A stretch of 64,000 nt of DNA from IMG/VR virus record IMGVR_UViG_2700989400_000004, positions 1 to 64,000 of that record; one strand, 5' to 3'. Source of the stretch: a virus (Duplodnaviria > Heunggongvirae > Uroviricota > Caudoviricetes). Below the pieces are notes generated by a model. It saw nothing but the letters and a program-made list of their open reading frames with translations. It made no database searches and was not told the origin of the DNA. The translations under genes were made by a program, and so were the position numbers. Position 1 is the first letter of the stretch; every line of letters begins with the position of its first letter. Below are positions 202 through 20,568 of the stretch, piece by piece.

Positions 202-229
202 ATCACATTAATACGTTCATTACGATGGA

Positions 230-1146: not shown

Positions 1147-1152
1147 CGGCCG

Positions 1153-1695: not shown

Positions 1696-1776
1696 ATACG
1701 ATAAACATTCACTTCATGCGAAAAAGGAATTCGTTGTGGGTATGGCGGAGAGGGGCAATCACCGCCCCTTGCGGAT

Positions 1777-2213: not shown

Positions 2214-2302
2214 GATGATCCCTTCTGAATGACAATAATTGCAATTATTGCAATTATTGAAATGATACCAGAGACAATTGCAATAAATGAAACGAAAAGC
2301 AT
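2210..2302 (-). CDS. small hydrophobic peptide (30 aa)
   Basis: MLFVSFIAIVSGIISIIAIIAIIVIQKGSS; AAGGTTGG Shine-Dalgarno upstream; stop overlaps next start. Confidence 0.25.
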   Translation of the reverse strand: MLFVSFIAIVSGIISIIAIIAIIVIQKGSS

Positions 2303-2491
2303 CAATAAACCAACCTTCGGCACTGAATGCTCTGATTTTTCTGCAAAGGTATGGCAGATGTTGGTGCATGCAAACATAAAGGCAATAGCAGAAGAAGCTG
2401 CGGGGAGTGAAAAGGGGAAGTTTTTATAAATACACGATTGTCGCCTCACTGCAGGTTAACAGCCACAAGCTCCATGATAATAACTTGTTAA

Positions 2492-2815
2492 TTATTTCAT
2501 CAGATTTTTCATTATTTGCGCGATTGAGTACACAAGCAAAAACTCGGCAGCCGCAAGAGTATAAAAAACATAAATTCGCTTAGCCCACCGACGATGAAAG
2601 AACTCCTCAGCATGGCCGGATGTTCGAGATACAAGCCATGCACCTACTGCACACAGAGCAGGTGCAATGAGCACAGTTATAAACCAGATTGTGATGCCCA
2701 TCCCATGCCTACTGATAATAGCCATTGGTATTGCAAAAATGAATGTTAGAGCAGCATTAGCTAATAGAATATCTTTTAAAGTATTTTCAATTAGTTTTGC
2801 TAGATTATCTTTCAT
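2492..2815 (-). CDS. hypothetical multi-pass membrane protein
   Basis: 107 aa, several hydrophobic helices, AT-rich. Confidence 0.4.
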   Translation of the reverse strand: MKDNLAKLIENTLKDILLANAALTFIFAIPMAIISRHGMGITIWFITVLIAPALCAVGAWLVSRTSGHAEEFFHRRWAKRIYVFYTLAAAEFLLVYSIAQIMKNLMK

Positions 2816-2844
2816 CTAATCCCCCACGTTGAACATTAATATAT

Positions 2845-2865
2845 AAAAGCCCCTTACTAAGGGGC
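2845..2865 (-). terminator. rho-independent terminator after lipoprotein gene
   Basis: GCCCCTTA/TAAGGGGC stem followed by T-tract on minus strand. Confidence 0.55.
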
Positions 2866-2879
2866 TTTGCACGGATTGT

Positions 2880-4022: not shown

Positions 4023-4156
4023 ATCCCTATTCCAAATGAAAATATTCAGATTAATCTTATCAGGAACCCAGATGCAATTGAATATTCATCTGCTCAGCAA
4101 CGTAGTAGATTTCCTCAGAAAGCATCAACAAAAAACCAAGAGAATCCCATCCTCTG

Positions 4157-4444
4157 TTACTGACTACAATTGTTCTTTTTTTGGTATTTCCTGAATGCCT
4201 CACCATTGGGCTGATGTAATCCCATCCCGGCATGTGCCCGGCTGATGGTTTCGCGCATCTCCCCGAAATTATCCTGCCTTGCTGGTGGGCGTGCTGCCTT
4301 GTGGATACATTCCGCGCGACGTTTTGCCGCCTGTTCCCGTGCCTTGTCATCATTCGCCAGCATGATGACCTCAGCCCACCGCGCCGCCGCTCTCCGGTAC
4401 AGTCCACGCGCTTCCAGTGCTTCCGCTTTGCTGTCGTGAATCAT
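4157..4444 (-). CDS. PerC family transcriptional activator
   Basis: 95 aa; N-terminal MIHDSKAEALEARGLYRRAAARWAEV typical of PerC-like proteins of P4-like elements. Confidence 0.6.
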   Translation of the reverse strand: MIHDSKAEALEARGLYRRAAARWAEVIMLANDDKAREQAAKRRAECIHKAARPPARQDNFGEMRETISRAHAGMGLHQPNGEAFRKYQKKNNCSQ

Positions 4445-4998
4445 GCGCCTGTTTTCTCCCTGGCTGCCCGGCGCTGGCGTTTGCGCTTCTCATTCAGCGC
4501 CATCAGCCGCATTTCTGCCTCGTTCTGTTTCTGTGGTGTCACCTCGCCGCACGGCTGGCCTTTCAGGTCATAGCGCACCCCACCAGCCATTAAGGCGCGG
4601 TAATAGCGCGGACACTGCGCATAAGATGCCAGCGTCGCACGTAATGCCCCTGGACCGAATGCCAGCCCCCTGACGGCGATATCCTGCATCAGGTCGTCGA
4701 ATATCCCCACCTTAAGTGGCTTCGGTGCTTCCCGGCTGAATAATTCAGGCCACAACTCAGTGAGACGGTTAACGCGCCTGCGGTTTTTGCGCTGGCGTTT
4801 GGTCATATGCCGCCACGGTGTCGCCCCTGTGGGCTTCTGCTGCGCTTTCTGGTTACCGGGCATCACTTTATGTGCCGATGTGGTTTTATCCTGCTTCTGT
4901 GCCGCCTGCGTCGTTTTCTGCGGCGTGCCGTAAATACCTTTCGGTTTTCTGTTAATGGTCAGTTTTGTCATGCTCTGCCCCATCATTGTTGCCGTCAT
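4441..4998 (-). CDS. ProQ/FinO-domain RNA chaperone-like protein
   Basis: LKVGIFDDL, RATLASYAQCPRYYRAL and RYDLKGQPCGEV align with the ProQ N-terminal domain (LKIGIFQDL, RSALRLYTSSWRYLYGV, RVDLDGNPCGEL). Confidence 0.6.
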   Translation of the reverse strand: MTATMMGQSMTKLTINRKPKGIYGTPQKTTQAAQKQDKTTSAHKVMPGNQKAQQKPTGATPWRHMTKRQRKNRRRVNRLTELWPELFSREAPKPLKVGIFDDLMQDIAVRGLAFGPGALRATLASYAQCPRYYRALMAGGVRYDLKGQPCGEVTPQKQNEAEMRLMALNEKRKRQRRAAREKTGA

Positions 4999-5149
4999 AT
5001 CGGCACGTAAAAATAAAACAGTCTCATTGTCAGTTACCTGTCAGCTTTTATGCCTTTTCCGGGTGGGATGGCTGACAGTAGTCAATCGTAATACAAAATT
5101 TGAACAACCTTTTTTTCTGTACTCTATAAGGCGTAAAAAAACATTTTTT

Positions 5150-5430
5150 ACCGGGATATCGGGATATAAACAAAAAAACCCCATTTATTTCATAGCGTTA
5201 TGTGATTTTTCATATCCCGCCATATCCCGGTAAGTTTTTTTTTGCTTATGCATCAATAAGATATTGCGGGATACATTCCGGGATACGGTTATTTTGTTTG
5301 TTTTACAACCACTCGTAAACCTAAATACCGGGATACGGCGGGATACAGCGGGATACGACAACAACACATAAATAACTGATATTTATGCAATATATTTTTC
5401 ATATCCCGATATCCCGCATATCCCGCGATT
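5150..5430. repeat. iteron cluster, about 12 copies of CGGGATA in both orientations (putative satellite replication origin)
   Basis: AT-rich 300 bp immediately 3' of the primase gene; direct and inverted CGGGATA/TATCCCG groups near 5152, 5210, 5265, 5330 and 5400. Confidence 0.6.
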
Positions 5431-5457
5431 TTTGACCCTCTGCGAGCGTAGGTTGTG

Positions 5458-7590
5458 CTATTCGTCTTCTGCCTGATCAATCAGCACGATAAATCGCTGC
5501 TGTGTTCCGTTAATCTTCACTGTTTTCGATGTCCAGCGACCAGGTTCTGCACAAACCAGCATTCCGGCTTCTTCCAGCGCCTGACACCCAAAGTTCCTGG
5601 ATATACCGCATAAAATTTCGCTATCAAACACTGACGGGATAATGTGATATTCGGGTTTTCCATCCTCACGCTTACCGCTGACAAGATAGCCTGCAAGATT
5701 GCTTATACGGGATGCATAGTGGTTATCCATATCCCCATTGCTTTTCCCGTAGGTATAAGGCTGAAAACGACTCAGGGCATGGCGCTGAATAAAGTCACGG
5801 GCGCGACTGATGACCTGATATTTTTCCCGGTTTTCCAGCCCGAAATCCTGTAGCCAGTCATCAAAAGCCCGTTGCGTTGCTTCCCGGCATTCTTCAGCTG
5901 TCCAGCCAGTAATTGCGGTGGCAAGCTCTCCGGCTGCATCCAGCATGGCGAATCGCGATGCCACTCGCCTTACCTGTGACGAGGCATTTTCAGGCAGATT
6001 TCCCAGCCAGGCATTTTCTTTATCTGAAGTGGTGTTGATAGCCAGCTCCTTGTGAGCGGATAACCAGCGCACCCACTCACGTCCCGCAGCGCCACAATAA
6101 TTTGATGAAAGTCGCTTTATGGCCCTGGCATGTTGATCACCATCGTCATAACCGTTAAACACCGTTGTATCGGTAAAGGGAATGCTTAGCAGTCGCACCA
6201 GTTGCCCTGCCTTTGGGGCAATTCCCCCTTTTAACAGGAAGGTTTCAAAATCTTCTTCTCCGGTGCTTAGTGCCGCTATTTTCCAGCGCATTACCGCACG
6301 ATTACCGCCGTCCTTGCGCCCCTGAATCCTGCCCACACCGTTAAACAGGCTGTAGGCGGATTGCGCAATGTCATTAACCCTTCCTCCCTGACCAATTTCA
6401 TCAATAGGGATAAAACCGTCATTACGTGCAGCTGCTTCCACTGTCAGCCCGTGCCGGGTGGCATCCCACGAGAGTTTAAGCATTTCAGGGTCGCCATAAA
6501 GGCTGGTGGCGGCCTCCACAGTCGTGGTTTTCCCCGCTGACGACTGCGCGAAAAGATGAATACCAAAACAACTACCACCCACAAGGGAATTTAGCGGGGC
6601 TGCCAGCCCGACCAGCACCCCAAGCATCATTGAGTGATTGCCACGCATCAGAGAAGCAACATTATTTCGCCATTCATGCACCGTGCCCCTGACAATATAG
6701 CCTTTGATGGCGGCAGATCCGCCGCAGAATGCTACGGGACGGTCAGGCACACCAATCACCTCGCCATCAGGCATAACATAGGCTCCACAATGCCAACCTG
6801 CTGTTGATGTGACCTCCCACACCGTGCGATCTCCATGACGTTGCAGGTATTCCGCCAGTTTGTTCAGTAAATGGGCACTGGTAGTGATTGCAACTCCCCG
6901 CCCACGTAATCGCGCCCATCCTGCGGGCATACCGATTTCATTGCGCGGCATCGCTTCGTAAATAATTTTTTGTGTCCCTTCCGGGATCATTTCAATGATC
7001 AGATACGCTTCCCTTCCGTCGTTACCAATACCTGCCGTGCGCATCCGGTCACTCAGCCAGGTTTCTTTATAATTCATCTCCTCTGCCCTGGTGTTGGGGA
7101 TTGGCTCGATATACCAGAGCGCCCCGTCTTTTTCGGTAATATGCGGTTTCATGGGGTCTGTTTTACCGGGTGATCCACCAGCTATTCCGATTCCTTCAGG
7201 AATGGTTTCCCCGCGCTCTGTCTGTTCGCGGATCCGTTGCAGGTAGTCGCGCCAGTTCTCCGGCTCCCGGTCGGTGATGCCTTTGTATAATTTCGCATCC
7301 TGTACGCCAGCCAGCGCCAGCTTTTCAGCGATAGCATTGATCTGGATTGGCTCTATCTCCCCCGCGATATAAACACGCGCAAAGCGGCGCTCATCGTCGA
7401 TAATGCGGATATTAGCCAGATCTGCCAGTTGCGTTGGCCCCAGGTAAACAGGTGGCACGTTATCGCCGTGTTTTCGTCCTTCGCTTTCAATCCAGTGTTG
7501 AGCATGGGCGTAAGCATCCGTCCCGGCAAAAATGATTACCTCGGTGAATTTATCCTTTGGCTGATATTTTAAATTCGGTGCGTTTTTCAC
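5458..7590 (-). CDS. primase/helicase replication protein (Toprim plus NTPase, P4 alpha-like)
   Basis: 710 aa; Walker A-like AQSSAGKTT; domain order typical of satellite primase-helicases. Confidence 0.8.
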   Translation of the reverse strand: MKNAPNLKYQPKDKFTEVIIFAGTDAYAHAQHWIESEGRKHGDNVPPVYLGPTQLADLANIRIIDDERRFARVYIAGEIEPIQINAIAEKLALAGVQDAKLYKGITDREPENWRDYLQRIREQTERGETIPEGIGIAGGSPGKTDPMKPHITEKDGALWYIEPIPNTRAEEMNYKETWLSDRMRTAGIGNDGREAYLIIEMIPEGTQKIIYEAMPRNEIGMPAGWARLRGRGVAITTSAHLLNKLAEYLQRHGDRTVWEVTSTAGWHCGAYVMPDGEVIGVPDRPVAFCGGSAAIKGYIVRGTVHEWRNNVASLMRGNHSMMLGVLVGLAAPLNSLVGGSCFGIHLFAQSSAGKTTTVEAATSLYGDPEMLKLSWDATRHGLTVEAAARNDGFIPIDEIGQGGRVNDIAQSAYSLFNGVGRIQGRKDGGNRAVMRWKIAALSTGEEDFETFLLKGGIAPKAGQLVRLLSIPFTDTTVFNGYDDGDQHARAIKRLSSNYCGAAGREWVRWLSAHKELAINTTSDKENAWLGNLPENASSQVRRVASRFAMLDAAGELATAITGWTAEECREATQRAFDDWLQDFGLENREKYQVISRARDFIQRHALSRFQPYTYGKSNGDMDNHYASRISNLAGYLVSGKREDGKPEYHIIPSVFDSEILCGISRNFGCQALEEAGMLVCAEPGRWTSKTVKINGTQQRFIVLIDQAEDE

Positions 7591-7877
7591 TTCTTACCTC
7601 CCGCAACCAACATTGCCCGGATTTTTTTAATATTCGAGGCTGCACGTCTTGCCACCGCCAATTGTTTGTTTTCCACCAGAATAAAATCACGCTCAAACTG
7701 ACGGCGCGGCATTACGCAGTCATATTCGTAAGCCTCACGGCGGTAGGTGATATTGCCTGGCGTAACGTGACGAATAACCACTCGTCCCCCACGTCTGGTG
7801 TCGCGGTAAATATCGCCAGAGCGAATTGCAGACCGAGAGAGGCCGCTGGCAGTAAAGCCAGAATTTTTCTTTTTCAT
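7587..7877 (-). CDS. hypothetical basic protein
   Basis: 96 aa ORF in operon with 4-nt overlaps. Confidence 0.4.
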   Translation of the reverse strand: MKKKNSGFTASGLSRSAIRSGDIYRDTRRGGRVVIRHVTPGNITYRREAYEYDCVMPRRQFERDFILVENKQLAVARRAASNIKKIRAMLVAGGKK

Positions 7878-7881
7878 GGTT

Positions 7882-8082
7882 TTATTTTCCTGTCAGCAGT
7901 TCCGGTTTTATTCCTGCACGAATACATAGTTCAGAAAAGCCTTCTACCGTACTTACAATTTCATTATTTCGCAGTCGGCATTGTGATTTCACTTTCCCTT
8001 TATCCAGGTAAACCAGTACGCGCCCGGTGAAATCATCTGGCACATTCAGGGTAATTGTCATTGTTGCTGGCTGATTACCCAT
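7882..8082 (-). CDS. hypothetical protein, one copy of FTGR...FSEL domain
   Basis: 66 aa; paralogous to the repeated domain in 8075..8440. Confidence 0.4.
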   Translation of the reverse strand: MGNQPATMTITLNVPDDFTGRVLVYLDKGKVKSQCRLRNNEIVSTVEGFSELCIRAGIKPELLTGK

Positions 8083-8440
8083 GACTTCCCCCCTGAATGA
8101 TCCGGTAATCGCAACGGGTCAGCAGTTCGCTAAATTCCGGCAGTGTTCCGAAACAGCAATCATCACGCAGCCGTTCGCGGGATACCTCGACGCCGTTTTC
8201 GTAGTGACTCACCATGCGTCCGGTAAAATGCAGATCATCATCGTGATGGTTCGTTAACGGCTTAATAAGTCGCGCACGTTCTGCCAGTTCCAGCAATGCT
8301 TCAACGCTTCCGGCAATTGCACCATCCGGCAGGTGATAATTACTTACCACGCGTCCATTCTCCACGTTAACCAGTAGCTGCTCGGTGAATTTCTCACGAA
8401 ACTGAATGCTGTTAAGGTCAGAAATTGACAGGTTATGCAT
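8075..8440 (-). CDS. hypothetical protein with two tandem FTGR...FSEL-type repeats
   Basis: 121 aa; internal duplication visible by eye. Confidence 0.45.
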   Translation of the reverse strand: MHNLSISDLNSIQFREKFTEQLLVNVENGRVVSNYHLPDGAIAGSVEALLELAERARLIKPLTNHHDDDLHFTGRMVSHYENGVEVSRERLRDDCCFGTLPEFSELLTRCDYRIIQGGSHG

Positions 8441-8798
8441 GGTGCACCTCCTGGCGAATACGGGCAGCGAATACCATCACGCAGCCATCAGGAGATTGCT
8501 GACGCGCTTCCTGTTCGCTGGTGGCCTCGATGTGAATTACGCGCGGTTGTGCTGTGCTCAGGGCGATAAAACGCCAGATAAAATTGTTCTCGCATTTCTG
8601 AATAAACAGCGTGTTTTCTTCGCGCCCTTTCCATGTTGCCGAGATATAGCCCATGTCATTGAGCATCTCGCAGGCATCAACCAGCGTATCAGCGGCTACG
8701 TGTACAGTGTTTTTACCGTCAGCTATGCAATCACGGTGCACCGCCAGGAAGGTGTATATAAATTTAGGGTGAGTTTGGGTATGCTGTGTTCCAGCCAT
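8433..8798 (-). CDS. hypothetical protein, first gene of leftward operon
   Basis: ATG at 8798 with GAGGT Shine-Dalgarno; 121 aa; same frame remains open upstream to 10019. Confidence 0.5.
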   Translation of the reverse strand: MAGTQHTQTHPKFIYTFLAVHRDCIADGKNTVHVAADTLVDACEMLNDMGYISATWKGREENTLFIQKCENNFIWRFIALSTAQPRVIHIEATSEQEARQQSPDGCVMVFAARIRQEVHHA

Positions 8799-8863
8799 AA
8801 TCGTTACCTCGTTTAACGGTTTGGTTAGACGCCCTGCATGTGTGCCACCACTGCGGGGCGTTG

Positions 8864-8898
8864 CTGTATATACACCACAATCATTAGTGTATATACAG
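8864..8898. promoter_or_regulatory. operator-like perfect inverted repeat CTGTATATACAC-N11-GTGTATATACAG
   Basis: 12-bp perfect arms seen directly; lies between divergent 8433..8798 (-) and 8989..9294 (+). Confidence 0.6.
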
Positions 8899-8988
8899 AT
8901 TAGATTTAAGTGTGCTACAGTGTCAAGTGTTTTATCAACACACCTTTTGGTGTAATGTGTACACACCTCAAAATAACCGGACATTCTG

Positions 8989-9294
8989 ATGGCAACAGGA
9001 AACATCAACAGCAGATCGCAAATGAAAAATATCCGCTTCCCCCATGATGTAATCGAGGAAATGGAAAATTCGAAAACGGAAGGGGAAACAATAGCCGCTT
9101 TCGTGATTACAGCCGTTCGCGGTGAAATCGCCCGCCGCCAGGCAGAAGGAAGCGGAGAAAATCCCCTGGTTTCTTCGCTCGATGCACTGGCGCAGGTGGA
9201 AAAAATCGGTGTCAAAGCAGCCGAGGAGATCGGGCAACTCGTCACCGTCGCGCGTGAAGAACTCCAGCGGCGCAAGGCCAAAGAACAGGAGTAA
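8989..9294 (+). CDS. putative Arc/Mnt-like ribbon-helix-helix regulator
   Basis: KNIRFPHDVIEEMEN...AAFVITAVRGEIARR resembles the Arc repressor fold pattern; conflicts with a long open frame on the opposite strand. Confidence 0.35.
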   Translation: MATGNINSRSQMKNIRFPHDVIEEMENSKTEGETIAAFVITAVRGEIARRQAEGSGENPLVSSLDALAQVEKIGVKAAEEIGQLVTVAREELQRRKAKEQE

Positions 9295-10011
9295 CCATCA
9301 CCAGCGCCGTGGTGTGAGGAACTACGGTGCATCGTTTTACAGGGCAGCGCCATGACCAACAAAGAATCAACCAATACACCATCACCGGCACGGAAAAGAC
9401 AGCGCAGAAAGATAGCGTACGAGCATGAGTCAGACAGATTCGCGCCCTGTGCGTTTATCCTTGAGAAATTCCTTAAAGAGTACAGGCGCACAAAAATGGG
9501 GTCGCATACCTGGAAAACATCGCGGCATGGCGATGTTAAAGAGCAGGAATAGCCCACCAGCAAGCCAGCATATTCACCATAATGACCCTCAGTTAAACCT
9601 AGAGTCATTGGTGCAAAGCTGACACATTGCCCACCAGCCGCAAATGTGGCATTGTTGGTGATGCGTTCAAGTATGTAGCTTTTCCACTGGCGGCTCTCTG
9701 CGGTCGCCTTTGTTTTATCCAGAACGAAATCAGACATCAGATTGATCAGCACCTGGCGACCTGACAAAATCGCATCAGTCGCGCCACCAGCAGTATTTTT
9801 TGCTTTCCGGACAGCTTGGCCAACTGCATTTTGCAGCAAAATATTCTGCATTTCTGGCTTACTGTGATAACAGTGATCAGCGCCTTCACTCTGTACGACC
9901 ACAACGCTATAATCTGCCTCGTAGACAGTAAGCAATATGGCGCAGTAAGCGACTTGTTCACAAAGGCGCTCCGGCAACGGGGCGCTTTTTCTTTTTGTAA
10001 CGGTCAGAGCA

Positions 10012-10812
10012 TTACACATGGCTGTTTTCCTCCATGCGACGGGCTAACCAACGCTGCGAAAGACGAATTAATTCAGCTTTCCGCTGGTGGTAGTCCTGGC
10101 CTAACTCAATCAGCGTGATATTGCTCTGCTCAAGGTAAGAAAGATGCTCAAGCTGCAACGTGCTCATGTGGTCGCGTGGTTCGCCTGTGATGCCGTTCGC
10201 CTGCGCCCACTGTTTTGCAGTCATGCCACCCAGCACGATACGCGCCAGCATATTGGCTTCCGTGGTGTAGTGGTGCTGTAGAGTGTTTTTACCCAGCTCA
10301 GCCCGGTACGCCTCCAGCGCGGCACACATTGGCTTAAAGTAGCTGGCAACTGTGATACGGGCTTTCAGTTCCCGGCGTAACACTGCGGAACGCACTGGCG
10401 CTACCTTGTGTAGCTCCTCCTCGCATTTGATAAAGTACTGACGAACGGCGCGGCCCTGTTCGGTGCGTTCGACCATCGCCAGTTCTTTCGCCATGTTCAC
10501 TGTGATGATGTACTCAAGAGCTGTTTGCTGGCGAGATTTTGCGCTCACCGGATCGGGTCGGCTCAAATATTCAACAACCTCATAATCCACGCCTTCCGTG
10601 AACCCGTATTCTTCAATGCGCCCCTTGATCCACGAACGGAAAACGCGCCCTACACCTAACGCCTTATGTAACGCTCTGGCGCTAACAATAGTGGTTTCAC
10701 GCCCACCAATAACGCCGGAAATAACCGGAATAATTTCAGCGAAATTTTGCAGATTCTGTTTTTCAGGCCGAACGAAGCCCCGCCCCTGTACAGGCGTATA
10801 TCCAGTATTCAT
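10012..10812 (-). CDS. phage antirepressor-like protein (Bro-N/AntA-type N-terminus)
   Basis: N-terminal IIPVISGVIGGRETTIVSARALHKALGV...EYGFTEGVDYEV. Confidence 0.6.
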   Translation of the reverse strand: MNTGYTPVQGRGFVRPEKQNLQNFAEIIPVISGVIGGRETTIVSARALHKALGVGRVFRSWIKGRIEEYGFTEGVDYEVVEYLSRPDPVSAKSRQQTALEYIITVNMAKELAMVERTEQGRAVRQYFIKCEEELHKVAPVRSAVLRRELKARITVASYFKPMCAALEAYRAELGKNTLQHHYTTEANMLARIVLGGMTAKQWAQANGITGEPRDHMSTLQLEHLSYLEQSNITLIELGQDYHQRKAELIRLSQRWLARRMEENSHV

Positions 10813-10864
10813 GGTTAAATCTCTGTATTAGTGGATGGGAGGCGGCTGTGTGCCGCCAGCCTGA

Positions 10865-11053
10865 TTAGTGAACTGCCTCGCGGCTGTCCTTCCATGCCAG
10901 AACTTCGGATAAAGACCAGCCAACGGAACGACCACCGAGTTTACGCCGTGATGGGAATTGTCCGGCTTTTTCCAGGCGGTAGCGGCATGAACGGCTCAGG
11001 CCTGTAAGTTGCTGACATTCTTTTTCACGTATAAAGCGATCTGTGCTTAACAC
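10865..11053 (-). CDS. alpA: AlpA family transcriptional regulator
   Basis: 62 aa; LTGLSRSCRYRLEKAGQFPSRRKLGGRSVGWSLSEVLAW is the AlpA-type HTH signature. Confidence 0.75.
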   Translation of the reverse strand: MLSTDRFIREKECQQLTGLSRSCRYRLEKAGQFPSRRKLGGRSVGWSLSEVLAWKDSREAVH

Positions 11054-11416
11054 AATTCCCCCTTTGTTGTTTCTTAAAGAGTCATTGGGTGGATTATTGG
11101 GTTGGGTCGGATTGTGTCAGGGTGTTTATGGAATGGCAAACACTGGTGGCGGTCGTTTTACAGAAGTGGGGTAATGAGAATAAAAACTTTTTTAATTCAT
11201 TGTGATGCAGTAGCGTAAAATTCTGTTTTTACGCCCTTTTTTACATGCTTTTAAGAGTGATTCGCCAATGTACAAAAAGCCAGTAAAACGACTGAAAATC
11301 AACTTTTTAGGGTGTCGGTCAGATGATAATCAAGTTTGTTCCAGATTGTTCGCCGTTGTTCGTCGTGGTGTCTCGTTGTTTCACGTTGTGTCCGTTCTGA
11401 AAAATCGCGAAAAAAA

Positions 11417-12667
11417 TTATATTTCTCTGGCTATTGGCAGTGTGGTTACGTTTTCGTGAGCACCTGCCAGTATCTCTAATCGCTCTGTCCACATATCCAG
11501 CGCGTTACGTTTCGCATCAATATAGCGGGAGTGGTTATAGACTCGTTGCATCCCTGGCATCTGGTGGGCGGTAAGTTGCTCGACAATATGCGGATCCACG
11601 CCTAAATCGTTCAGCATCGTGGTAAACGTGCGCCGTATATCGTGCAGGGACCAGTGAGGATGGTTTAATTTTTTGTGCGTAAATCTGCCGTATTGTGACA
11701 CGCTGGCTTCCTGTTTCAGTTCTCCGAGTAATAACCCTGTGTGCCTGTTCTGCTCCACCAGTTGCGTGACGAACGGCAAAATGCTTTCCGGTATTGGCCT
11801 GAATATGGCGACCTTCGTTTTGCTGTGTTCTTTCGGTACCGTCCAGAGCATTTCCTTAAAATCCCACTCCCTGATCTCCGACAGCCTCAGTTCTCCAGTT
11901 CGGCAGCCAAACACAATCAGGAGGCGGATTAGCGCGCTGTAGTAGGGCGGGAATATTTTTTTATCCAGCGCCTGTAATAATTCGCCCAGTTCTTTGTTAC
12001 TAAGCACGCGTTCGCTTATGCCTGGCTTTTTGCCAACGTCCACCACGTTGAGATCATCCAGAACGTTACTGACTGCGTAGCGACGTTTTCGGCAGAACTT
12101 AAGCGCCTGTTTACACGCCTGCATCATGTGACCAGACGTTACAGGGGATTTTTTGCGTATCCGGTCAAAACAGGCCAGCCAGTGACGTAACTCGCATTTA
12201 TCCAGTGGCATATTGCCAATATGCTGTATGACGTGATTATTCAGGCGGCTGTTCAGGGAGACGTAATCGACACGGTTTTCCTTTACGTGCATTTCCAGCC
12301 AGTAGCTGATCGCATCACCCACCGTTACCGGCTTTAGTGCTTCCTGTATGGAGTAATTAAGCTCATGGCGTGGATTTTTTCCTTCTGCCAGCCATGCGCG
12401 ACACTGTGCCGCTTTTTCCCTGGCTGCTTTCAGGCTCAGATCAGGATAATTTCCCAGCTTCAGGCGTTCCGGTGATACCAGGCGTCCAGCTCCTGCCCTG
12501 TAGGTGAAATACCAGGTTAACAAGCCGCTGGTGGAATGCCTGACGCTCAGGTTTCCACCGTCATTAAGAAATGTGGTTTTTGGGGCTGGTGTGCCGTTGA
12601 TTTTTCTTAGCTGTGTATCGCTCAGTTTGTTAAGTGCTCTGCTCATAATTTTGAATCCGGTCATCAC
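11417..12667 (-). CDS. int: tyrosine-type site-specific integrase (P4-like)
   Basis: 416 aa; N-terminal arm-binding-like domain and C-terminal catalytic region (HxxR...Y); start uncertain. Confidence 0.85.
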   Translation of the reverse strand: MMTGFKIMSRALNKLSDTQLRKINGTPAPKTTFLNDGGNLSVRHSTSGLLTWYFTYRAGAGRLVSPERLKLGNYPDLSLKAAREKAAQCRAWLAEGKNPRHELNYSIQEALKPVTVGDAISYWLEMHVKENRVDYVSLNSRLNNHVIQHIGNMPLDKCELRHWLACFDRIRKKSPVTSGHMMQACKQALKFCRKRRYAVSNVLDDLNVVDVGKKPGISERVLSNKELGELLQALDKKIFPPYYSALIRLLIVFGCRTGELRLSEIREWDFKEMLWTVPKEHSKTKVAIFRPIPESILPFVTQLVEQNRHTGLLLGELKQEASVSQYGRFTHKKLNHPHWSLHDIRRTFTTMLNDLGVDPHIVEQLTAHQMPGMQRVYNHSRYIDAKRNALDMWTERLEILAGAHENVTTLPIAREI

Positions 12668-12668
12668 A

Positions 12669-12692
12669 ATTAACTACACCATTAACTACACC
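12669..12692. repeat. tandem 12-bp direct repeat ATTAACTACACC x2 next to int start
   Basis: Seen directly; candidate arm-type or regulatory site. Confidence 0.5.
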
Positions 12693-12910
12693 GATCATTG
12701 CACAAGGGGGTACAACGTGGAACAAATTGGAACAAGAAAAATTGCAATGAGTTTAAAAATCAAAAACATAATGAACAACGTGGCACATTATGAAACAGCA
12801 AAAAACACTAATTTATAAAATCACGATATTAATAATGTAACTTATATTTTCGTGAAATCTGTCACTGAAGAAAATTGGCAACTAAAGGTTAAAACCGTTA
12901 TAACACAGTC

Positions 12911-13005
12911 ACCGGCGCAGAGGAGACAATGCCGGATTTAAGACGCGGATGCACTGCTGTGTGTACTGTAGAGTCTGGCGGATGTCGACAGACTCTATTT
13001 TTTTA
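12911..13005 (+). ncRNA. mcaS: McaS (IsrA) small regulatory RNA
   Basis: Matches recalled McaS sequence ACCGGCGCAGAGGAGACAAUGCCGGAUUUAAGACGCGGAUG..., ends in a GAGTCTG...CAGACTC hairpin plus U-tract, convergent with abgR as in K-12. Confidence 0.7.
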
Positions 13006-13012
13006 TGCAGTT

Positions 13013-13921
13013 TTAACTTTGCAGATAGCCGCATTCTCGCCGGAATTGCGTGATTAATGACGCGGTCAGTGGTGTCTGGCGACTATCACGCCGCTGAATC
13101 AAATAATAGGCCGCTTTCGGTAAAATTTCGCTAACCGGCAACATCACCAGCCCCTGTCCGTGCAAGGGATCGCAGCCCATTTCTTCAGGCAGTATGCTGA
13201 GAAAATCGCTTTTTGCCACCAGACTGATACAGGCTGAGAACGTCTCGCAGACTACACCGACCTGTGGCGTTTGCGCCTGATCGTCAAGCAATTCACTCAA
13301 CTGTTTGTAGTAGCTGCCGTGTGGCGTCGGCATTGTCCAGCTGTAATCCAGTAACTGTTTGATCGAACGGGCACCAATGGCGGGGTGTCCCGGGCGGCAA
13401 AAGATCGCGAATTGCTTTTCCAGTAATTTCTCAAAAGTAAATTCGTGGTCGTACGGTCCCTGATAATAGGTATTGATGGTGAAATCCAATTCTCCCTGAC
13501 GCAATTCATTAATCATCGACACCAGTTGCCCTTCCATAATGCGTACTTTTACCTGCGGATGCTGCTGATGAAAACGAGATATGACAGCTGGCATCAGACT
13601 GCGGGAAATACTGGCCCCCATGCCGATATTAATCTGCCCTGCCAGTTGCCCTTGTCGTTGGCGAATATCCTCTTGGGCTGCGCGCAGTTCTTCAAGAATA
13701 AGACTGGCGTGCTGATAAAAACTTTCACCGGCATCAGTTAACGTCACGCCTTTACTACGGCGAAAAAAGAGTTGCGCCGCTAATCCTTCTTCCAGCTCCT
13801 GAATAGATTTACTCAGTGCCGGTTGCGACATATTCAACATTCGGCTCGCTCCGCGAATGCTGCCCTGACGAGCCACTTCAACAAAAGCACGAATTTGATG
13901 AATTTTTACCTGAAAAGCCAT
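13013..13921 (-). CDS. abgR: LysR-family regulator AbgR
   Basis: 302 aa LysR-type HTH plus substrate domain; divergent from abgAB-abgT. Confidence 0.9.
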   Translation of the reverse strand: MAFQVKIHQIRAFVEVARQGSIRGASRMLNMSQPALSKSIQELEEGLAAQLFFRRSKGVTLTDAGESFYQHASLILEELRAAQEDIRQRQGQLAGQINIGMGASISRSLMPAVISRFHQQHPQVKVRIMEGQLVSMINELRQGELDFTINTYYQGPYDHEFTFEKLLEKQFAIFCRPGHPAIGARSIKQLLDYSWTMPTPHGSYYKQLSELLDDQAQTPQVGVVCETFSACISLVAKSDFLSILPEEMGCDPLHGQGLVMLPVSEILPKAAYYLIQRRDSRQTPLTASLITQFRRECGYLQS

Positions 13922-14096
13922 GACGCCACCGATAACCGTTATTTATCAGACCAAAGAAACTGGCATCTACTTTAATGCAGATGATTGTGTCAGGGTAATT
14001 TATGAACGGTTAAAACTGTGAAAAATCAGTTAGTGATAAGTAAAAACTATCGCTACGTGAACCGGGTCACACTTTTTACTGATGACGGGAAAGGTT

Positions 14097-15407
14097 ATGG
14101 AGTCTTTGAATCAATTTGTTAATTCGCTTGCCCCAAAATTATCGCACTGGCGACGTGATTTTCATCACTATGCAGAGTCTGGCTGGGTGGAATTCCGCAC
14201 TGCCACCCTTGTTGCGGAAGAATTGCAGCAGCTCGGCTATTCACTGGCGCTGGGCCGCGAAGTAGTTAATGAAAGTAGCCGGATGGGACTACCTGATGAA
14301 CTCACTCTACAACGCGAATTCGAGCGCGCTCGTCAACAGGGTGCGCTAGCACAATGGATTGCGGTTTTTGAAGGTGGTTTCACTGGTATCGTCGCCACCC
14401 TGGATACCGGTCGCCCCGGTCCGGTGATGGCTTTCCGTGTCGATATGGACGCGCTGGATCTCAGTGAAGAGCAGGATGTCAGCCATCGCCCCTACCGCGA
14501 CGGTTTTGCGTCATGTAACGCCGGAATGATGCATGCCTGTGGTCATGATGGACATACCGCCATTGGGCTTGGGCTGGCGCATACCCTTAAACAATTCGAG
14601 TCCGGACTACATGGCGTCATCAAACTGATTTTTCAGCCTGCAGAGGAAGGTACGCGTGGCGCGCGGGCGATGGTCGATGCAGGTGTCGTAGATGATGTTG
14701 ATTATTTTACTGCCGTGCACATTGGCACTGGCGTACCTGCGGGCACCGTGGTGTGCGGCAGTGATAATTTTATGGCAACCACCAAATTTGACGCGCACTT
14801 CACCGGTACCGCCGCTCACGCAGGCGCAAAACCAGAAGACGGTCACAATGCCTTGTTGGCGGCAGCACAAGCCACTCTTGCACTGCATGCAATCGCCCCG
14901 CACAGCGAAGGAGCTTCCAGAGTAAACGTGGGCGTTATGCAGGCAGGAAGCGGTCGTAACGTTGTTCCTGCCTCGGCGTTGCTGAAAGTGGAAACACGCG
15001 GGGCCAGCGACGTCATTAATCAATATGTTTTTGACCGTGCACAACAAGCGATTCAGGGCGCAGCAACCATGTATGGTGTCGGCGTTGAAACTCGTCTGAT
15101 GGGTGCAGCTACCGCCAGTTCTCCTTCGCCGCAATGGGTCGCATGGTTGCAAAGTCAGGCGGCTCAGGTCGCGGGGGTCAATCAGGCCATTGAACGTGTT
15201 GAAGCGCCTGCGGGTTCCGAAGATGCCACATTAATGATGGCCCGCGTGCAGCAACATCAAGGGCAAGCCTCCTACGTGGTGTTTGGCACACAGCTGGCGG
15301 CAGGTCATCACAACGAAAAATTCGATTTTGACGAGCAGGTTCTCGCTATTGCCGTCGAAACGCTGGCGCGCACCGCGCTCAATTTTCCCTGGACGCGAGG
15401 TATCTGA
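14097..15407 (+). CDS. abgA: p-aminobenzoyl-glutamate hydrolase subunit A (M20 peptidase)
   Basis: 436 aa from MESLNQ start; M20 family metal-binding motifs. Confidence 0.9.
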   Translation: MESLNQFVNSLAPKLSHWRRDFHHYAESGWVEFRTATLVAEELQQLGYSLALGREVVNESSRMGLPDELTLQREFERARQQGALAQWIAVFEGGFTGIVATLDTGRPGPVMAFRVDMDALDLSEEQDVSHRPYRDGFASCNAGMMHACGHDGHTAIGLGLAHTLKQFESGLHGVIKLIFQPAEEGTRGARAMVDAGVVDDVDYFTAVHIGTGVPAGTVVCGSDNFMATTKFDAHFTGTAAHAGAKPEDGHNALLAAAQATLALHAIAPHSEGASRVNVGVMQAGSGRNVVPASALLKVETRGASDVINQYVFDRAQQAIQGAATMYGVGVETRLMGAATASSPSPQWVAWLQSQAAQVAGVNQAIERVEAPAGSEDATLMMARVQQHQGQASYVVFGTQLAAGHHNEKFDFDEQVLAIAVETLARTALNFPWTRGI

Positions 15408-16852
15408 TGCAGGAAATCTATCGTTTTATCGACGATGCGATTGAAGCCGATCGCCAACGTTATACCGATATTGCCGATCAAATCTGGGATCATCCAGAAA
15501 CACGTTTTGAAGAGTTCTGGTCAGCGGAGCATCTGGCTTCGGCGCTGGAATCTGCAGGCTTCACCGTTACCCGCAACGTAGGCAATATCCCAAATGCCTT
15601 TATTGCTTCGTTTGGTCAAGGCAAACCGGTTATCGCCCTGCTGGGAGAATATGACGCCCTGGCAGGTTTAAGTCAGCAAGCAGGTTGCGCGCAACCTACA
15701 TCCGTGACGCCCGGTGAAAATGGTCACGGTTGCGGACACAATTTGCTGGGAACCGCCGCCTTTGCCGCTGCAATAGCCGTCAAGAAATGGCTGGAACAAT
15801 ATGGGCAAGGCGGCACAGTGCGCTTTTATGGTTGTCCTGGCGAAGAAGGCGGCTCGGGTAAAACGTTCATGGTCCGCGAGGGGGTATTTGATGATGTGGA
15901 TGCGGCACTCACCTGGCACCCGGAAGCCTTTGCCGGTATGTTCAATACACGCACGCTGGCAAACATTCAGGCATCATGGCGCTTTAAAGGGATCGCAGCA
16001 CATGCCGCGAATTCCCCTCATTTGGGACGCAGCGCCCTTGATGCCGTAACGTTGATGACCACTGGCACCAACTTCCTCAACGAACATATTATTGAAAAAG
16101 CGCGCGTACACTATGCCATCACAGATAGCGGCGGGATCTCGCCCAACGTGGTCCAGGCGCAGGCAGAAGTGCTTTATCTTATCCGTGCCCCCGAAATGAC
16201 CGACGTGCAGCATATTTATGATCGGGTCGCCAAAATCGCCGAATGTGCGGCATTGATGACCGAAACCACGGTTGAATGCCGCTTCGACAAAGCCTGTTCC
16301 AGTTATCTCCCGAATCGCACCTTAGAAAATGCCATGTACCATGCCCTATCCCATTTTGGTACCCCGGAATGGAACTCCGAAGAACTGGCTTTTGCGAAAC
16401 AAATTCAGGCTACGCTCACCCCCAACGATCGGCAAAACAGTCTGAATAATATCGCCGCAACCGGTGGCGAAAACGGCAAGGTTTTTGCACTACGTCATCG
16501 TGAAACGGTACTGGCGAATGAGGTCGCTCCATATGCCGCCACCGATAACGTGCTTGCGGCATCGACTGATGTCGGCGACGTCAGTTGGAAACTGCCTGTT
16601 GCCCAGTGTTTCAGCCCCTGTTTTGCCGTCGGTACACCGCTACATACGTGGCAACTGGTTAGCCAGGGGCGAACATCTATTGCTCATAAAGGAATGCTGC
16701 TGGCGGCGAAAACTATGGCAGCAACCACAGTCAATCTCTTCATTGATTCAGGGCTATTGCAAGAATGCCAACAAGAGCATCAGCAAGTTACGGACACGCA
16801 ACCGTATCACTGCCCTATCCCGAAAAACGTGACACCGTCACCTTTAAAATAA
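15407..16852 (+). CDS. abgB: p-aminobenzoyl-glutamate hydrolase subunit B (M20 peptidase)
   Basis: 481 aa; start overlaps abgA stop. Confidence 0.9.
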   Translation: MQEIYRFIDDAIEADRQRYTDIADQIWDHPETRFEEFWSAEHLASALESAGFTVTRNVGNIPNAFIASFGQGKPVIALLGEYDALAGLSQQAGCAQPTSVTPGENGHGCGHNLLGTAAFAAAIAVKKWLEQYGQGGTVRFYGCPGEEGGSGKTFMVREGVFDDVDAALTWHPEAFAGMFNTRTLANIQASWRFKGIAAHAANSPHLGRSALDAVTLMTTGTNFLNEHIIEKARVHYAITDSGGISPNVVQAQAEVLYLIRAPEMTDVQHIYDRVAKIAECAALMTETTVECRFDKACSSYLPNRTLENAMYHALSHFGTPEWNSEELAFAKQIQATLTPNDRQNSLNNIAATGGENGKVFALRHRETVLANEVAPYAATDNVLAASTDVGDVSWKLPVAQCFSPCFAVGTPLHTWQLVSQGRTSIAHKGMLLAAKTMAATTVNLFIDSGLLQECQQEHQQVTDTQPYHCPIPKNVTPSPLK

Positions 16853-16888
16853 CAACAACAACGCAAACACAACAACCGAGGAATGCCC

Positions 16889-18334
16889 ATGAGTATGTCA
16901 TCCATACCGTCGTCCTCCCAATCCGGGAAGCTCTATGGCTGGGTCGAAAGAATTGGTAACAAGGTTCCCCATCCTTTTTTGCTCTTTATCTATTTGATAA
17001 TCGTACTCATGGTGACGACGGCAATTTTGTCAGCCTTTGGCGTCAGTGCGAAAAACCCGACCGATGGTACGCCGGTGGTGGTGAAAAACCTGCTCAGTGT
17101 GGAAGGATTACACTGGTTTTTACCCAATGTGATTAAAAACTTTAGCGGTTTTGCTCCACTTGGAGCGATCCTGGCGCTGGTTTTAGGTGCCGGCCTAGCG
17201 GAGCGCGTCGGCTTACTGCCAGCGCTAATGGTTAAAATGGCATCGCATGTTAATGCCCGCTACGCCAGTTATATGGTGCTGTTTATTGCTTTTTTCAGCC
17301 ACATTTCTTCCGATGCGGCGTTAGTGATCATGCCACCGATGGGTGCGCTGATTTTTCTGGCGGTGGGCAGGCATCCAGTTGCAGGTTTACTGGCTGCCAT
17401 TGCAGGCGTAGGTTGCGGCTTTACGGCTAATTTACTGATTGTCACAACCGACGTGTTGCTGTCGGGGATCAGCACGGAAGCGGCGGCTGCGTTCAATCCG
17501 CAAATGCACGTCAGTGTAATTGATAACTGGTATTTTATGGCCAGCTCCGTAGTCGTACTGACGATTGTTGGCGGCCTGATAACCGACAAAATCATCGAGC
17601 CACGATTAGGTCAATGGCAGGGAAACAGCGATGAGAAACTGCAGACATTGACCGAAAGTCAGCGTTTTGGTTTACGCATAGCAGGTGTCGTATCGCTACT
17701 TTTTATTGCTGCGATCGCGCTGATGGTGATCCCGGAAAACGGGATATTGCGCGATCCGATTAATCACACCGTGATGCCATCACCCTTTATTAAAGGTATC
17801 GTGCCACTGATCATTCTTTTTTTCTTTGTTGTCTCGCTGGCTTATGGCATCGCTACCCGCACAATTCGACGTCAGGCGGATTTACCGCATTTAATGATTG
17901 AACCGATGAAAGAGATGGCGGGATTTATCGTGATGGTTTTTCCCCTCGCCCAATTTGTCGCCATGTTTAACTGGAGCAACATGGGGAAATTCATCGCCGT
18001 GGGGCTGACCGATATACTTGAAAGTTCAGGGCTTAGCGGCATCCCGGCGTTTGTCGGTCTGGCGTTGCTTTCCTCTTTCTTATGCATGTTTATTGCCAGC
18101 GGTTCCGCAATCTGGTCGATTCTGGCCCCCATTTTCGTACCAATGTTTATGCTACTTGGCTTTCACCCGGCATTTGCGCAAATCCTCTTTCGTATTGCCG
18201 ACTCATCCGTATTGCCTTTAGCGCCGGTATCTCCTTTTGTTCCACTGTTTCTTGGATTCCTGCAACGCTACAAACCAGACGCAAAACTGGGTACTTACTA
18301 TTCGTTAGTCTTGCCCTATCCGCTTATCTTTTGA
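16889..18334 (+). CDS. abgT: p-aminobenzoyl-glutamate transporter AbgT, apparently C-terminally shortened
   Basis: Polytopic AbgT-family protein; 481 aa from MSMSS start versus about 508 aa recalled for K-12; prophage DNA begins right after the stop. Confidence 0.85.
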   Translation: MSMSSIPSSSQSGKLYGWVERIGNKVPHPFLLFIYLIIVLMVTTAILSAFGVSAKNPTDGTPVVVKNLLSVEGLHWFLPNVIKNFSGFAPLGAILALVLGAGLAERVGLLPALMVKMASHVNARYASYMVLFIAFFSHISSDAALVIMPPMGALIFLAVGRHPVAGLLAAIAGVGCGFTANLLIVTTDVLLSGISTEAAAAFNPQMHVSVIDNWYFMASSVVVLTIVGGLITDKIIEPRLGQWQGNSDEKLQTLTESQRFGLRIAGVVSLLFIAAIALMVIPENGILRDPINHTVMPSPFIKGIVPLIILFFFVVSLAYGIATRTIRRQADLPHLMIEPMKEMAGFIVMVFPLAQFVAMFNWSNMGKFIAVGLTDILESSGLSGIPAFVGLALLSSFLCMFIASGSAIWSILAPIFVPMFMLLGFHPAFAQILFRIADSSVLPLAPVSPFVPLFLGFLQRYKPDAKLGTYYSLVLPYPLIF

Positions 18335-18432
18335 ATGGGTAGTTTATTGTAAAATATATTTATATTCAATGCGTTATGTTTTATTTTTGATTTTGATTTA
18401 TCAATTTGGTCACTATTTGGTACACAAAAAGA

Positions 18433-18452
18433 AACGAGGCGTTAGCCTCGTT
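18433..18452 (-). terminator. rho-independent terminator after tail fiber gene
   Basis: AACGAGGC/GCCTCGTT stem, T-rich run on minus strand. Confidence 0.5.
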
Positions 18453-18483
18453 TCGCGCGGCGATGTTCTTCGCACATCACCTT

Positions 18484-20568
18484 TTACTCTTCGCTTCCGG
18501 TCAACTGCTTAACAAGCGCAACCAGTTCGCTTACCTGATTTTCAAGCGCGGTAATGCGTGCATCTTGAGTAACTATGGCTATATCTTGATCCTTACATAC
18601 TCTGACGAGATATCCAACGATGCCGGAGTAATTAACACCCAAAACAATTTTTTCACCAGTAAGCACGGTGCCGTCACTTGTCGGTCCTGGCATCTCTTTT
18701 GTTATTGTTACTTCGCGAACTACTTGCGGCAATATCTTTTGCCATTCCTGTGCTATAACACCAGCGCACGCCCTATTATCACCAATAAAATTGAATGTAT
18801 ATCCGTTAACGTGCTGCAATAATTTTCTGGCCTCCTGTATTTCCATAATATTTTCTTTTTCATTTATATCTGATGTTTGTGTTAATTCTGAGCAGGAGAC
18901 TTTACCGGATGTGAAGATATCTGCGGTTGATGTTATTTTTTGTGAGAAGTTGGCTGTTGCTGTTACGTTCATTTTTCCAGCAAATACAGCGTTGGAGTCC
19001 GACTGAAGTTTTGTTTTTGCTCTTACTGTACCTGCGGTTATTGTTGTTGGCGATGATAACTGCTCCGCATAGGATTGCGCATTGGCTTCTGATTCTGCGG
19101 CTGCGGCTGCTGCTGCTGCTGCGTTTTCCGCTTCAGATGTTGCGGTGGCGGCACGCTCTTCAGCCAGCACGCTGTAACCCTCTGCAGCGTCTCTCGCGGC
19201 TATGGCTTCATCCCGCGCGCTGGTCGCTGTGTTAGCGGCGCTGGTCGCGGCGGTCGCGGCACTGGTAATGGTAGCCGCCTGTTCAGTTGCAGTGGTTGCC
19301 TGCGCCACTGCTTCATCGCGGGCCGCTTCAGTGGCGGTCTGCGCGGTCTGTGCCGCTTCTGCGGCTTGGGTGGCGGCGGTTGCTTTTTGGGTTGCTGTAT
19401 TTACGGCGGCTGATATCTTCGATTCGTCTATAGCAATACTACTAGCGCTTGCTTCCGCTGCTTCTGCGGCGGTTTCTGCGTCGTTTTTATGCTCAAGCGC
19501 TGCGGCGGCGGCAGTGGTTGCCTCATTCGCTTTTTGGGTCGCTGTGTTAGCGGCGCTGGTCGCGGCGGTCGCGGCACTGGTAATGGTAGCCGCCTGTTCA
19601 GTTGCAGTGGTTGCCTGCGCCACTGCTTCATCGCGGGCCGCTTCAGTGGCGGTCTGCGCGGTCTGTGCCGCTTCTGCGGCTTGGGTGGCGGCGGTTGCTT
19701 TTGCTGCCAGTTCTTTTTCATCGATAGCGATATTAGCGGCGGTTGTTTCTGCTGCTGCGGCTGCGGCTTCGGATTTCTCCGCTTCTTCCTTCGCATACAT
19801 GCGCAATTCATAAACAGCGGCACGATCTGCCGCTACGGCTTCGGCATCTGTATTGGCTGCTGCGGCGGCTTGGGTGGCGGCTGACGCCTGTTCAGTTGCT
19901 ACTGTTGCTCGTTCAGTTGCGACGACTGCTCTCGCGGTAGCTTCGTCGCGTGCTGCTTCGGTAGCAGTCTGCGCGGTCTGTGCGGCGGTGGCGGCATTGG
20001 TGGCGGTAGTAGCTTGTTCGGTCGCTACGGTTGCCTGTGTGGCGGCGGTGGCGGCTTGTTCACCAGCCAGCACGCTGTAACCTTCTGCGGCATCTTTCGC
20101 GGCAATAGCTTCATGCCGCGCGGCGGCGGTTGTTTCAACGTCTGCGGCGGTGGCGGCGGCGTTGGCGGTTGATTGCGCTGTTTCTGCCTGAATAGCGGTT
20201 AACAGTGCTTCTACCTGCGCGGCATCACCATAATTTTTCCAGTATTCAACGGCGGCATAGATCTCTGATTCCTGCCCGGTGAAATAGCGTAATGCTTCCG
20301 CTACGTCTTGCGCCAGCCCGTCAACTGAGATCGAATCGCACAGTAAAATACTGTAAGCAGTACCCGCCGGAATATCCGGTGATGCTGCCGGGGTTATAGA
20401 TAATTCCGTTTCACTGACAATTTCAGTGATGGAAAAGATCTGAATAGGGTCGCTTTTTACAATAACTGTGCACCCCACGCGGATCATGGATAAGGGTGCT
20501 TTAAAATTTGTACCCGTCCCGGTCAGCGTGTTACCGGATACGGCAATACTTCCAATGGTGTAGATCAT
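18484..20568 (-). CDS. side tail fiber protein with Ala/Thr-rich tandem repeats and C-terminal intramolecular-chaperone (S74-like) domain
   Basis: 694 aa; repeated ATQKATAATQAAEAAQTAQTATEAARDEA units; C-terminal SDINEKENI autoproteolysis-type motif. Confidence 0.7.
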   Translation of the reverse strand: MIYTIGSIAVSGNTLTGTGTNFKAPLSMIRVGCTVIVKSDPIQIFSITEIVSETELSITPAASPDIPAGTAYSILLCDSISVDGLAQDVAEALRYFTGQESEIYAAVEYWKNYGDAAQVEALLTAIQAETAQSTANAAATAADVETTAAARHEAIAAKDAAEGYSVLAGEQAATAATQATVATEQATTATNAATAAQTAQTATEAARDEATARAVVATERATVATEQASAATQAAAAANTDAEAVAADRAAVYELRMYAKEEAEKSEAAAAAAETTAANIAIDEKELAAKATAATQAAEAAQTAQTATEAARDEAVAQATTATEQAATITSAATAATSAANTATQKANEATTAAAAALEHKNDAETAAEAAEASASSIAIDESKISAAVNTATQKATAATQAAEAAQTAQTATEAARDEAVAQATTATEQAATITSAATAATSAANTATSARDEAIAARDAAEGYSVLAEERAATATSEAENAAAAAAAAAESEANAQSYAEQLSSPTTITAGTVRAKTKLQSDSNAVFAGKMNVTATANFSQKITSTADIFTSGKVSCSELTQTSDINEKENIMEIQEARKLLQHVNGYTFNFIGDNRACAGVIAQEWQKILPQVVREVTITKEMPGPTSDGTVLTGEKIVLGVNYSGIVGYLVRVCKDQDIAIVTQDARITALENQVSELVALVKQLTGSEE
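19226..19706. repeat. in-frame tandem duplication (315-bp period) inside tail fiber gene
   Basis: Near-identical about 165-bp segments at 19226-19392 and 19541-19706. Confidence 0.7.

Follow-up and report, generated by a model that had tools for sequence, protein, structure and literature searches.

A temperate mEpimmI-group prophage at the 3′ end of Escherichia coli abgT, with a predicted loss of nitrate control at the split ogt promoter

The 64,000-nucleotide (nt) stretch of DNA considered here, hereafter the window, comprises positions 1 to 64,000 of the IMG/VR virus record IMGVR_UViG_2700989400_000004 (Caudoviricetes) and holds the abg operon of an Escherichia coli host with a prophage directly behind abgT. 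Taken as a whole, the segment 18300-18484 is very probably the tail-fibre-proximal junction (attR in the lambda convention, att denoting an attachment site) of a temperate siphophage of the mEpimmI group. At this junction, the abgT reading frame ends after 481 codons, and the promoter of the neighbouring gene ogt is split by the prophage, because the left heptamer of its NarL II operator lies inside the att core. An earlier note, made from the letters of the window, had placed a prophage in the 3′ end of abgT, and this proposal is upheld by the break in host homology at 18332 and by the match of the junction to the attP site of a free phage. The features that make up the junction are the following.

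16889-18334, plus strand: truncated abgT coding sequence, 481 amino acids (aa) plus stop (open reading frame, Pfam ABG_transport match, comparison with strains 442/2 and K-12)
18332-18334, plus strand: TGA stop at the junction, T being the last core base and GA the first phage-specific bases
18317-18332, no strand: att core, the block identical in host attB and phage attP, spanning abgT codons 477-481
18333-18483, no strand: tail-fibre-proximal phage att arm with an AT-rich stretch at 18335-18430, alignable to N1286 and to the terminal part of the mEp013 record

The abgT frame runs on the plus strand from ATG 16889, which is the start annotated in K-12, to TGA 18332-18334 and encodes 481 aa, or 483 aa if the upstream in-frame ATG at 16883 serves as an alternative start. 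Its product ends in ...GTYYSLVLPYPLIF, with SLVLPYPLIF as the last residues and F481 as the final one. The earlier note had given a stop at 18334 after these residues and a protein of 481-483 aa against about 508 aa in K-12, and both statements agree with the frame, its coordinates and the K-12 gene, which measures 1527 nt, encodes 508 aa and reads LVVWLLMLLAWYLVGLPIGPGIYPRLS beyond F481. In K-12, ogt starts 10 nt downstream of the abgT stop. When the K-12 locus is aligned to the window, only 14900-18332 matches (99.2% identity), and over residues 1-481 the two AbgT proteins show a single difference (E283 in the window, Q in K-12). Beyond the stop, the 96 bases 18335-18430 contain 21.9% G+C, as against 49% in abgT. 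Because the first phage bases, GA, complete a TGA at once, the phage provides no substitute C-terminus; the identical junction TGA was found in the attP of mEp013, in N1286 and at the ends of published prophages.

The truncation is ascribed to insertion because the gene is uninterrupted in E. coli 442/2 and in a large majority of other genomes. Strain 442/2 (NZ_CP076282.1) is collinear with window positions 1-18332 (99.83% identity, 26 mismatches); past the core it reads CTTATCTTTT/TGGTGGTATGG..., where the slash here and below marks the right edge of the core, and it carries a full 508-aa abgT followed directly by ogt. Residues 1-481 of its AbgT are exactly those of the window protein, and the strain thus displays an empty, intact target site in a close relative of the window's host. 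In a comparison set of 5426 complete E. coli genomes, 4208 carry the uninterrupted 400-bp abgT-ogt junction. Among the matches listed for this set (4915 genomes matched), those to abgT end at window position 18332, except in prophage carriers such as N1286. An AbgT ending at F481 was looked for in prophage-free strains, and these carry the full 508 aa.

In most relatives, the core is the 16-bp block TATCCGCTTATCTTTT (18317-18332); in mEp013 and N1286 it amounts to at least 10 bp (CTTATCTTTT, 18323-18332), and its right edge is fixed at 18332. The block (TATCCG)CTTATCTTTT is common to all the sites compared: attB of 442/2 and K-12, attP of mEp013, attR of the window and N1286, and attL of 15 related loci. 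In the window and N1286, attR reads ...GCCCTATCCGCTTATCTTTT/GAATGG..., while attB in 442/2 reads ...GCCCTATCCGCTTATCTTTT/TGGTGGTATGG... and attP of the free phage mEp013, obtained by joining the ends of its record, reads ...GGCGTTACCTACTTATCTTTT/GAATGGGTAG... (that is, ...CCTACTTATCTTTTGAATGGGTAG...). In the 15 related lysogens, attL is mostly ...GGCGTTATCCGCTTATCTTTT/TGGTGGTATGG... (core TATCCGCTTATCTTTT/TGGTGGTATGG), then the abgT remnant and ogt. Indeed, the integrase-side junction carries an 81-nt abgT remnant (27 codons) and an intact 171-aa ogt in every one of these 15 loci. Of the earlier claim that the last 25 or so codons had been replaced, the shortening of the protein therefore stands, but the codons number 27 and, as the 81-nt remnant in the relatives indicates, are displaced rather than replaced. 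The integrase of the relatives is a 399-411-aa enzyme of the tyrosine type with Arm-DNA-bind_3 and Phage_integrase domains; its gene, which adjoins the ogt side, has its start about 150 bp from the core and points away from it. This arrangement supports a location of the present prophage's own type II integrase beyond the window end and, judged by the relatives, the far junction would lie about 8-9 kb past that end. One further element of the phage arm is a candidate for recognition by the integrase.

18405-18426, plus strand: 22-bp motif TTTGGTCACTATTTGGTACACA, candidate arm-type integrase site, with a second copy beside the integrase start in the other attP arm

The motif, TTTGGTCAC(T/A)ATTTGGTACACA, occurs once in each att arm, which makes it a candidate arm-type integrase binding site. 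The 9-bp sub-motif TTTGGTMAC, considered by itself as an arm site, was dropped, its one occurrence corresponding to chance frequency.

The earlier note had regarded abgT as a previously unnoted attachment site. This part of the proposal falls, since the site was published by Negrete-Mendez et al. 2025 (Front Microbiol 16:1480411, PMC11893012), who report ydaM, abgT and mppA as insertion sites of mEpimmI phages and assign those with type II integrases to the 3′-terminal region of abgT. Their type II group comprises mEp010, mEp013 and mEp044 and the prophages of 09-0049 (= 09-00049), UMNK88, RM9245, 127, 190, E21845, GN05505 and GN04592 (PMC11893012). The prophage sequences in the supplement of that paper end in CCATTCAAAAGATAAGCGGATAGGGC, which is the reverse complement of the window junction. 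In the complete-genome set, the window junction is present in 12 records, namely the eight published type II lysogens together with N1286, CB7286, a duplicate record of CB7286, and 2017C-4173W12. In N1286, abgT is annotated by PGAP, the NCBI pipeline, as a pseudogene ('incomplete; missing C-terminus'). Integration at the 3′ end of abgT in itself thus adds little, being a published mEpimmI feature whose truncating effect annotation pipelines already flag; what is added is the exact anatomy, with a core of 10-16 bp, an immediate phage-borne stop, a cut within the last transmembrane helix and a host gene that is not compensated. An abgT-associated DusA-like integrase of Klebsiella (PMC4482086) was considered and set aside as a member of a different integrase family. 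The 90% cluster that contains the 481-aa truncated AbgT also lists 481-aa members named AbgB or amidohydrolase, which looks like a quirk of naming or clustering, AbgB also being 481 aa long.

The consequence for the transporter can be read from its domain and from solved homologues. The Pfam ABG_transport profile (PF03806) is matched over positions 1-476 of 502, short of the complete domain with transmembrane helix 9 (TM9). The 27 missing residues have their aligned counterparts in the conserved C-terminal ends of the two solved family members, MtrF 4R1I (...LPYSAFFLIAWIALFCIWVFVLGLPVGPG) and YdaH 4R0C (...LPYSLTLLLGWSVLLGVWIGFGWPLGP), and AbgT has a hydropathy peak at residues 473-500. In the solved structures, TM9, the last helix, is part of the transport domain and of the second inverted repeat, which comprises TM6-TM9 (PMC4621753). 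AbgT(1-481) is predicted to lose between half and the C-terminal two thirds of TM9, and the cut at residue 481 probably inactivates or destabilises the protein.

Squire et al. reportedly described, in 2009, an E. coli ogt promoter with tandem NarL sites. This promoter maps inside the 3′ end of abgT (Ruanto et al. 2020, PMC7419079): NarL I (TACTTACTATTCGTTA) is centred at -77.5 and overlapped by a Fis site, NarL II (TATCTTT-TT-GGTGGTA) lies at -44.5 and abuts the -35 element, and the extended -10 is TGGTATCTT. The native ogt promoter is no longer induced by nitrate when either NarL site carries point mutations, the NarL I mutant being ogt102 (PMC7419079). Positions given here are counted from NarL II at -44.5, a numbering that reproduces NarL I at -77.5 in both K-12 and 442/2. 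Two elements of the promoter are present in the window.

18292-18307, plus strand: NarL I operator (TACTTACTATTCGTTA, -77.5) with the overlapping Fis site, cut off from the promoter (PMC7419079 supplementary Fig. S3, primer ogt101)
18325-18331, plus strand: NarL II left heptamer TATCTTT, within the att core, its right heptamer replaced by phage DNA (PMC7419079 map)

Of the native tandem arrangement, the window therefore retains NarL I and one half of NarL II, behind which phage DNA begins. At the other end of the related prophages, NarL II, the -35 and the -10 are kept in all 15 integrase-side junctions; no 7-2-7-like site occurs at -77.5 or -67.5 in these 15 attL junctions, and no consensus promoter facing ogt from the phage arm was found in the attL region of N1286. 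With NarL I left on the abgT side, the prediction is that lysogens no longer induce ogt in response to nitrate: they would keep the basal promoter and forgo NarL/Fis-dependent control. That integration causes a double lesion of abgT and ogt, reversible by excision, in which nitrate-induced ogt expression and functional AbgT are both lost in lysogens, is put forward tentatively, as a possibility only slightly less probable than its contrary. If it is true, phages of this group would reversibly change how well the cell is protected from alkylation damage, and perhaps how fast it mutates, while it respires nitrate in the gut; the ogt product is an O6-alkylguanine DNA alkyltransferase, and common gut prophages are predicted to alter the nitrate control of a DNA-repair enzyme. 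The mEpimmI paper makes no mention of ogt, NarL or nitrate and does not discuss the truncation of AbgT (PMC11893012), and the searchable literature yielded nothing on abgT-ogt co-transcription or on a link between the att site and ogt. The splitting of the ogt promoter by integration seems to be unreported.

At the junction itself (18325-18341), a phage-borne ATGGGTA forms a perfect NarL right half-site behind TATCTTT, with a spacer of 3 bp instead of 2 bp (7-3-7). A promoter-like TTGAAT-N18-TATATT at 18331-18360 on the plus strand, relative to which the orphan NarL I would stand near -67.5, was considered and rejected as a chance-level match; because the match is at that level, the half-site arrangement at the junction is probably a coincidence.

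The ogt promoter also accounts for another form of the locus. About 180 genomes (extrapolated from a spread listing) match the K-12 junction only from query position 194 and were suspected of carrying further insertions in the core. The two that were checked, ET474 and 09A19CPO009, proved to be deletion alleles of the abg operon with a diverged remnant unrelated to the att core: both are without abgA, abgB and most of abgT and abgR, and keep a 132-nt abgT 3′ remnant (3959-4090 in each locus) that has a 12-bp deletion. Similar partial matches in the search of the 5426 genomes suggest that many more are abg-deleted. The remnant corresponds to the ogt promoter variant of APEC O1, E2348/69 and CFT073 (PMC7419079 Fig. 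S4). Its retention in abg-deleted lineages is explained by the location of the ogt promoter, and they apparently keep it because it drives ogt. Since whole lineages have deleted the abg operon, the operon is dispensable.

Altogether, these findings lead to a model in which a tyrosine recombinase would integrate the phage site-specifically into abgT codons 477-481. Strand exchange inside the core (TATCCG)CTTATCTTTT common to attP and attB would join abgT to the phage arm, whose GA completes the TGA, so that AbgT ends at F481. The last 27 codons would be moved about 54 kb to the integrase-proximal junction beside ogt, beyond the window, as they are in the 15 related lysogens. At that far junction, NarL II, the -35 and the extended -10 would be rebuilt and the core ogt promoter kept, and precise excision would restore both abgT and the ogt promoter.

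Several points weigh against this model and against reading 18300-18484 as the attR of such a prophage. The integrase of this prophage and its other junction lie outside the window, and insertion without deletion is for that reason read from the relatives only. In the published work, a check by polymerase chain reaction (PCR) concerned only mEp021 at ydaM, the abgT site having been established by sequence analysis (PMC11893012). Furthermore, the phage arm might supply other activating sequences for ogt. An origin of the short AbgT as a natural allele, a nonsense mutation or an assembly artefact, with unrelated DNA downstream, can nevertheless be regarded as practically negligible. Beyond the bare presence of a stop codon nothing favours it; host homology breaks off exactly at that stop, the full gene is present in 442/2 and in the 4208 complete genomes, and at least 12 complete genomes share the junction, which also agrees with the attP of a free phage.

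Loss of host DNA, at integration or by later rearrangement, is another alternative, according to which the 3′ end of abgT and possibly ogt would be deleted or truly replaced. The position of the other prophage end outside the window agrees with it, as does the deletion of about 7 kb at the insertion site that is described for some mEpimmI prophages (PMC11893012). However, the core, the 81-nt remnant and the intact 171-aa ogt are together in all 15 related integrase-side junctions, and the window junction is a clean core junction identical to attP, which leaves such a loss quite improbable. A more credible alternative, although still an unlikely one, is that integration is phenotypically silent, AbgT(1-481) being functional or dispensable and ogt expression essentially unchanged. 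Lineages without the abg operon and with only the 132-nt remnant show that abgT can be dispensed with, modified single-site ogt promoters can still be activated by NarL (PMC7419079), and the exact 481-aa AbgT is present on 350 public contigs, which implies that the lysogens are viable and widespread. Against silence, the 27 missing residues are part of the conserved Pfam domain and of the final transmembrane helix. In addition, point mutations confined to NarL I are enough to abolish the response of the native promoter to nitrate, and the attL sites offer no substitute 7-2-7 site at -77.5 or -67.5. Site-specific integration by an mEpimmI phage thus remains the favoured explanation of the junction, and its assignment to that group rests on the genes that lie to the right of it.

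18333-64000, minus strand: mEpimmI-group prophage, more than 45.6 kb, continuing past the window end (gene content, phage matches)
18484-20568, minus strand: tail-fibre gene, 694 aa, with a C-terminal Peptidase_S74 chaperone domain, last gene at the prophage end (open reading frame, domain match)
18431-18454, minus strand: intrinsic terminator ending the tail-fibre gene (10-bp stem, then a T-run; T21 in the mEp013 annotation)
62296-62943, minus strand: CI-like repressor, helix-turn-helix plus Peptidase_S24 (domain match, phage repressor comparison)

On the minus strand, the prophage genes follow the order tail fibre, J and tape measure; head, portal and terminase; lysis; a long early region; ERF and SSB; and the CI-like repressor. 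When 18335-43000 was compared by megablast with 50,697 phage records, only seven phages matched, all collinear and all of the mEpimmI group (mEp021, mEp010, mEp013, mEp044, mEp515, mEp554 and MagusPhagus), with 81-83% identity over 49-62% of the query. The repressor shares 91-93% identity with those of all seven sequenced group members, the next best phage match being 52%. Two features of mEpimmI phages, a shared syntenic structural module and an immunity group I CI-like repressor, are therefore both present and, judged by its sequence, the inserted element is a new, fairly divergent (mEp021-like) member of the group. The order of genes in the early region is the same as in related loci. Nus-dependent, N-like antitermination is a further trait of the group, and an antitermination gene is annotated in relatives of the prophage. 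Exact look-ups with the repressor and with an 84-aa early protein retrieved 19 related loci, whose identity to the window is about 95% at most. A 56-mer that lies at the end of the window had no exact match among the viral contigs searched.

The tail-fibre gene has its stop at 18484, and its exact protein had no match in a public collection of 15 billion proteins. In its long central region, the protein is rich in alanine and contains internal duplications that are nearly exact (ATQAAEAAQTAQTATEAARDEAVAQATTATEQAATITSAATAATSAANTAT twice). The hairpin at 18431-18454 ends this gene and not abgT, because its T-run is on the minus strand only. AT-rich phage-like DNA does follow abgT, as had been noted earlier, but the terminator mentioned along with it is not one for that gene. 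At the opposite end of the window, four copies of GGTCATG(A/G) with a spacing of about 11 bp stand at 63900-63942, within a replication-protein gene that crosses the window end, and have the appearance of origin iterons.

A second integrative element occupies window positions 1-12820, to the left of the abg operon and between smrA and mcaS/abgR.

11417-12667, minus strand: integrase of the second element
10012-10812: AntA
5458-7590: DUF927 protein

Its tyrosine integrase is 28% identical to the prophage-type integrase. Strain 442/2 carries this element of about 13 kb at 100% identity, and its annotation there includes ProQ/FinO, PerC and Icd-like genes. The junction of the island at 12821 lies about 90 bp upstream of the gene for the McaS/IsrA small RNA (12911-13006, plus strand; Rfam RF00115, 118 bits), where the mcaS promoter would be. 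The element looks like a P4-like satellite or island, and the abg operon thus lies between two mobile elements.

Integration of the lambda type, by a tyrosine integrase and within or at the 3′ end of a host gene, is familiar from e14 and phage 21 at icd, and many phages that use icd or tRNA genes bring along a duplicate 3′ end, so that the host gene stays functional. The prophage at abgT resembles e14 and phage 21 in its short attP/attB core, in the predicted position of the integrase at one junction with the tail genes at the other, and in the candidate arm repeats of both arms; unlike in these systems, the phage arm gives an immediate stop and no substitute C-terminus. With the type II mEpimmI phages and prophages (PMC11893012), it shares the host gene, the junction GCCCTATCCGCTTATCTTTTGAATGG, the repressor family, the syntenic structural module and a tail fibre as the last gene before the junction, yet it is only 81-83% identical to these phages at the nucleotide level, over 49-62% of the structural region. 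Phage mEp021, which has a type I integrase, integrates in the 5′ region of ydaM/dgcM, as confirmed by PCR (PMC11893012). It belongs to the same phage group and disrupts a host gene within the same chromosomal neighbourhood of about 20 kb, but it differs in integrase type, core and target gene. As for the ogt promoter, NarL I and the left half of NarL II stand in the window exactly as mapped in K-12, and whereas the natural variants described so far have a deletion of about 10 bp between the sites, or have lost NarL I as in Salmonella, here the two operators are separated by a prophage.

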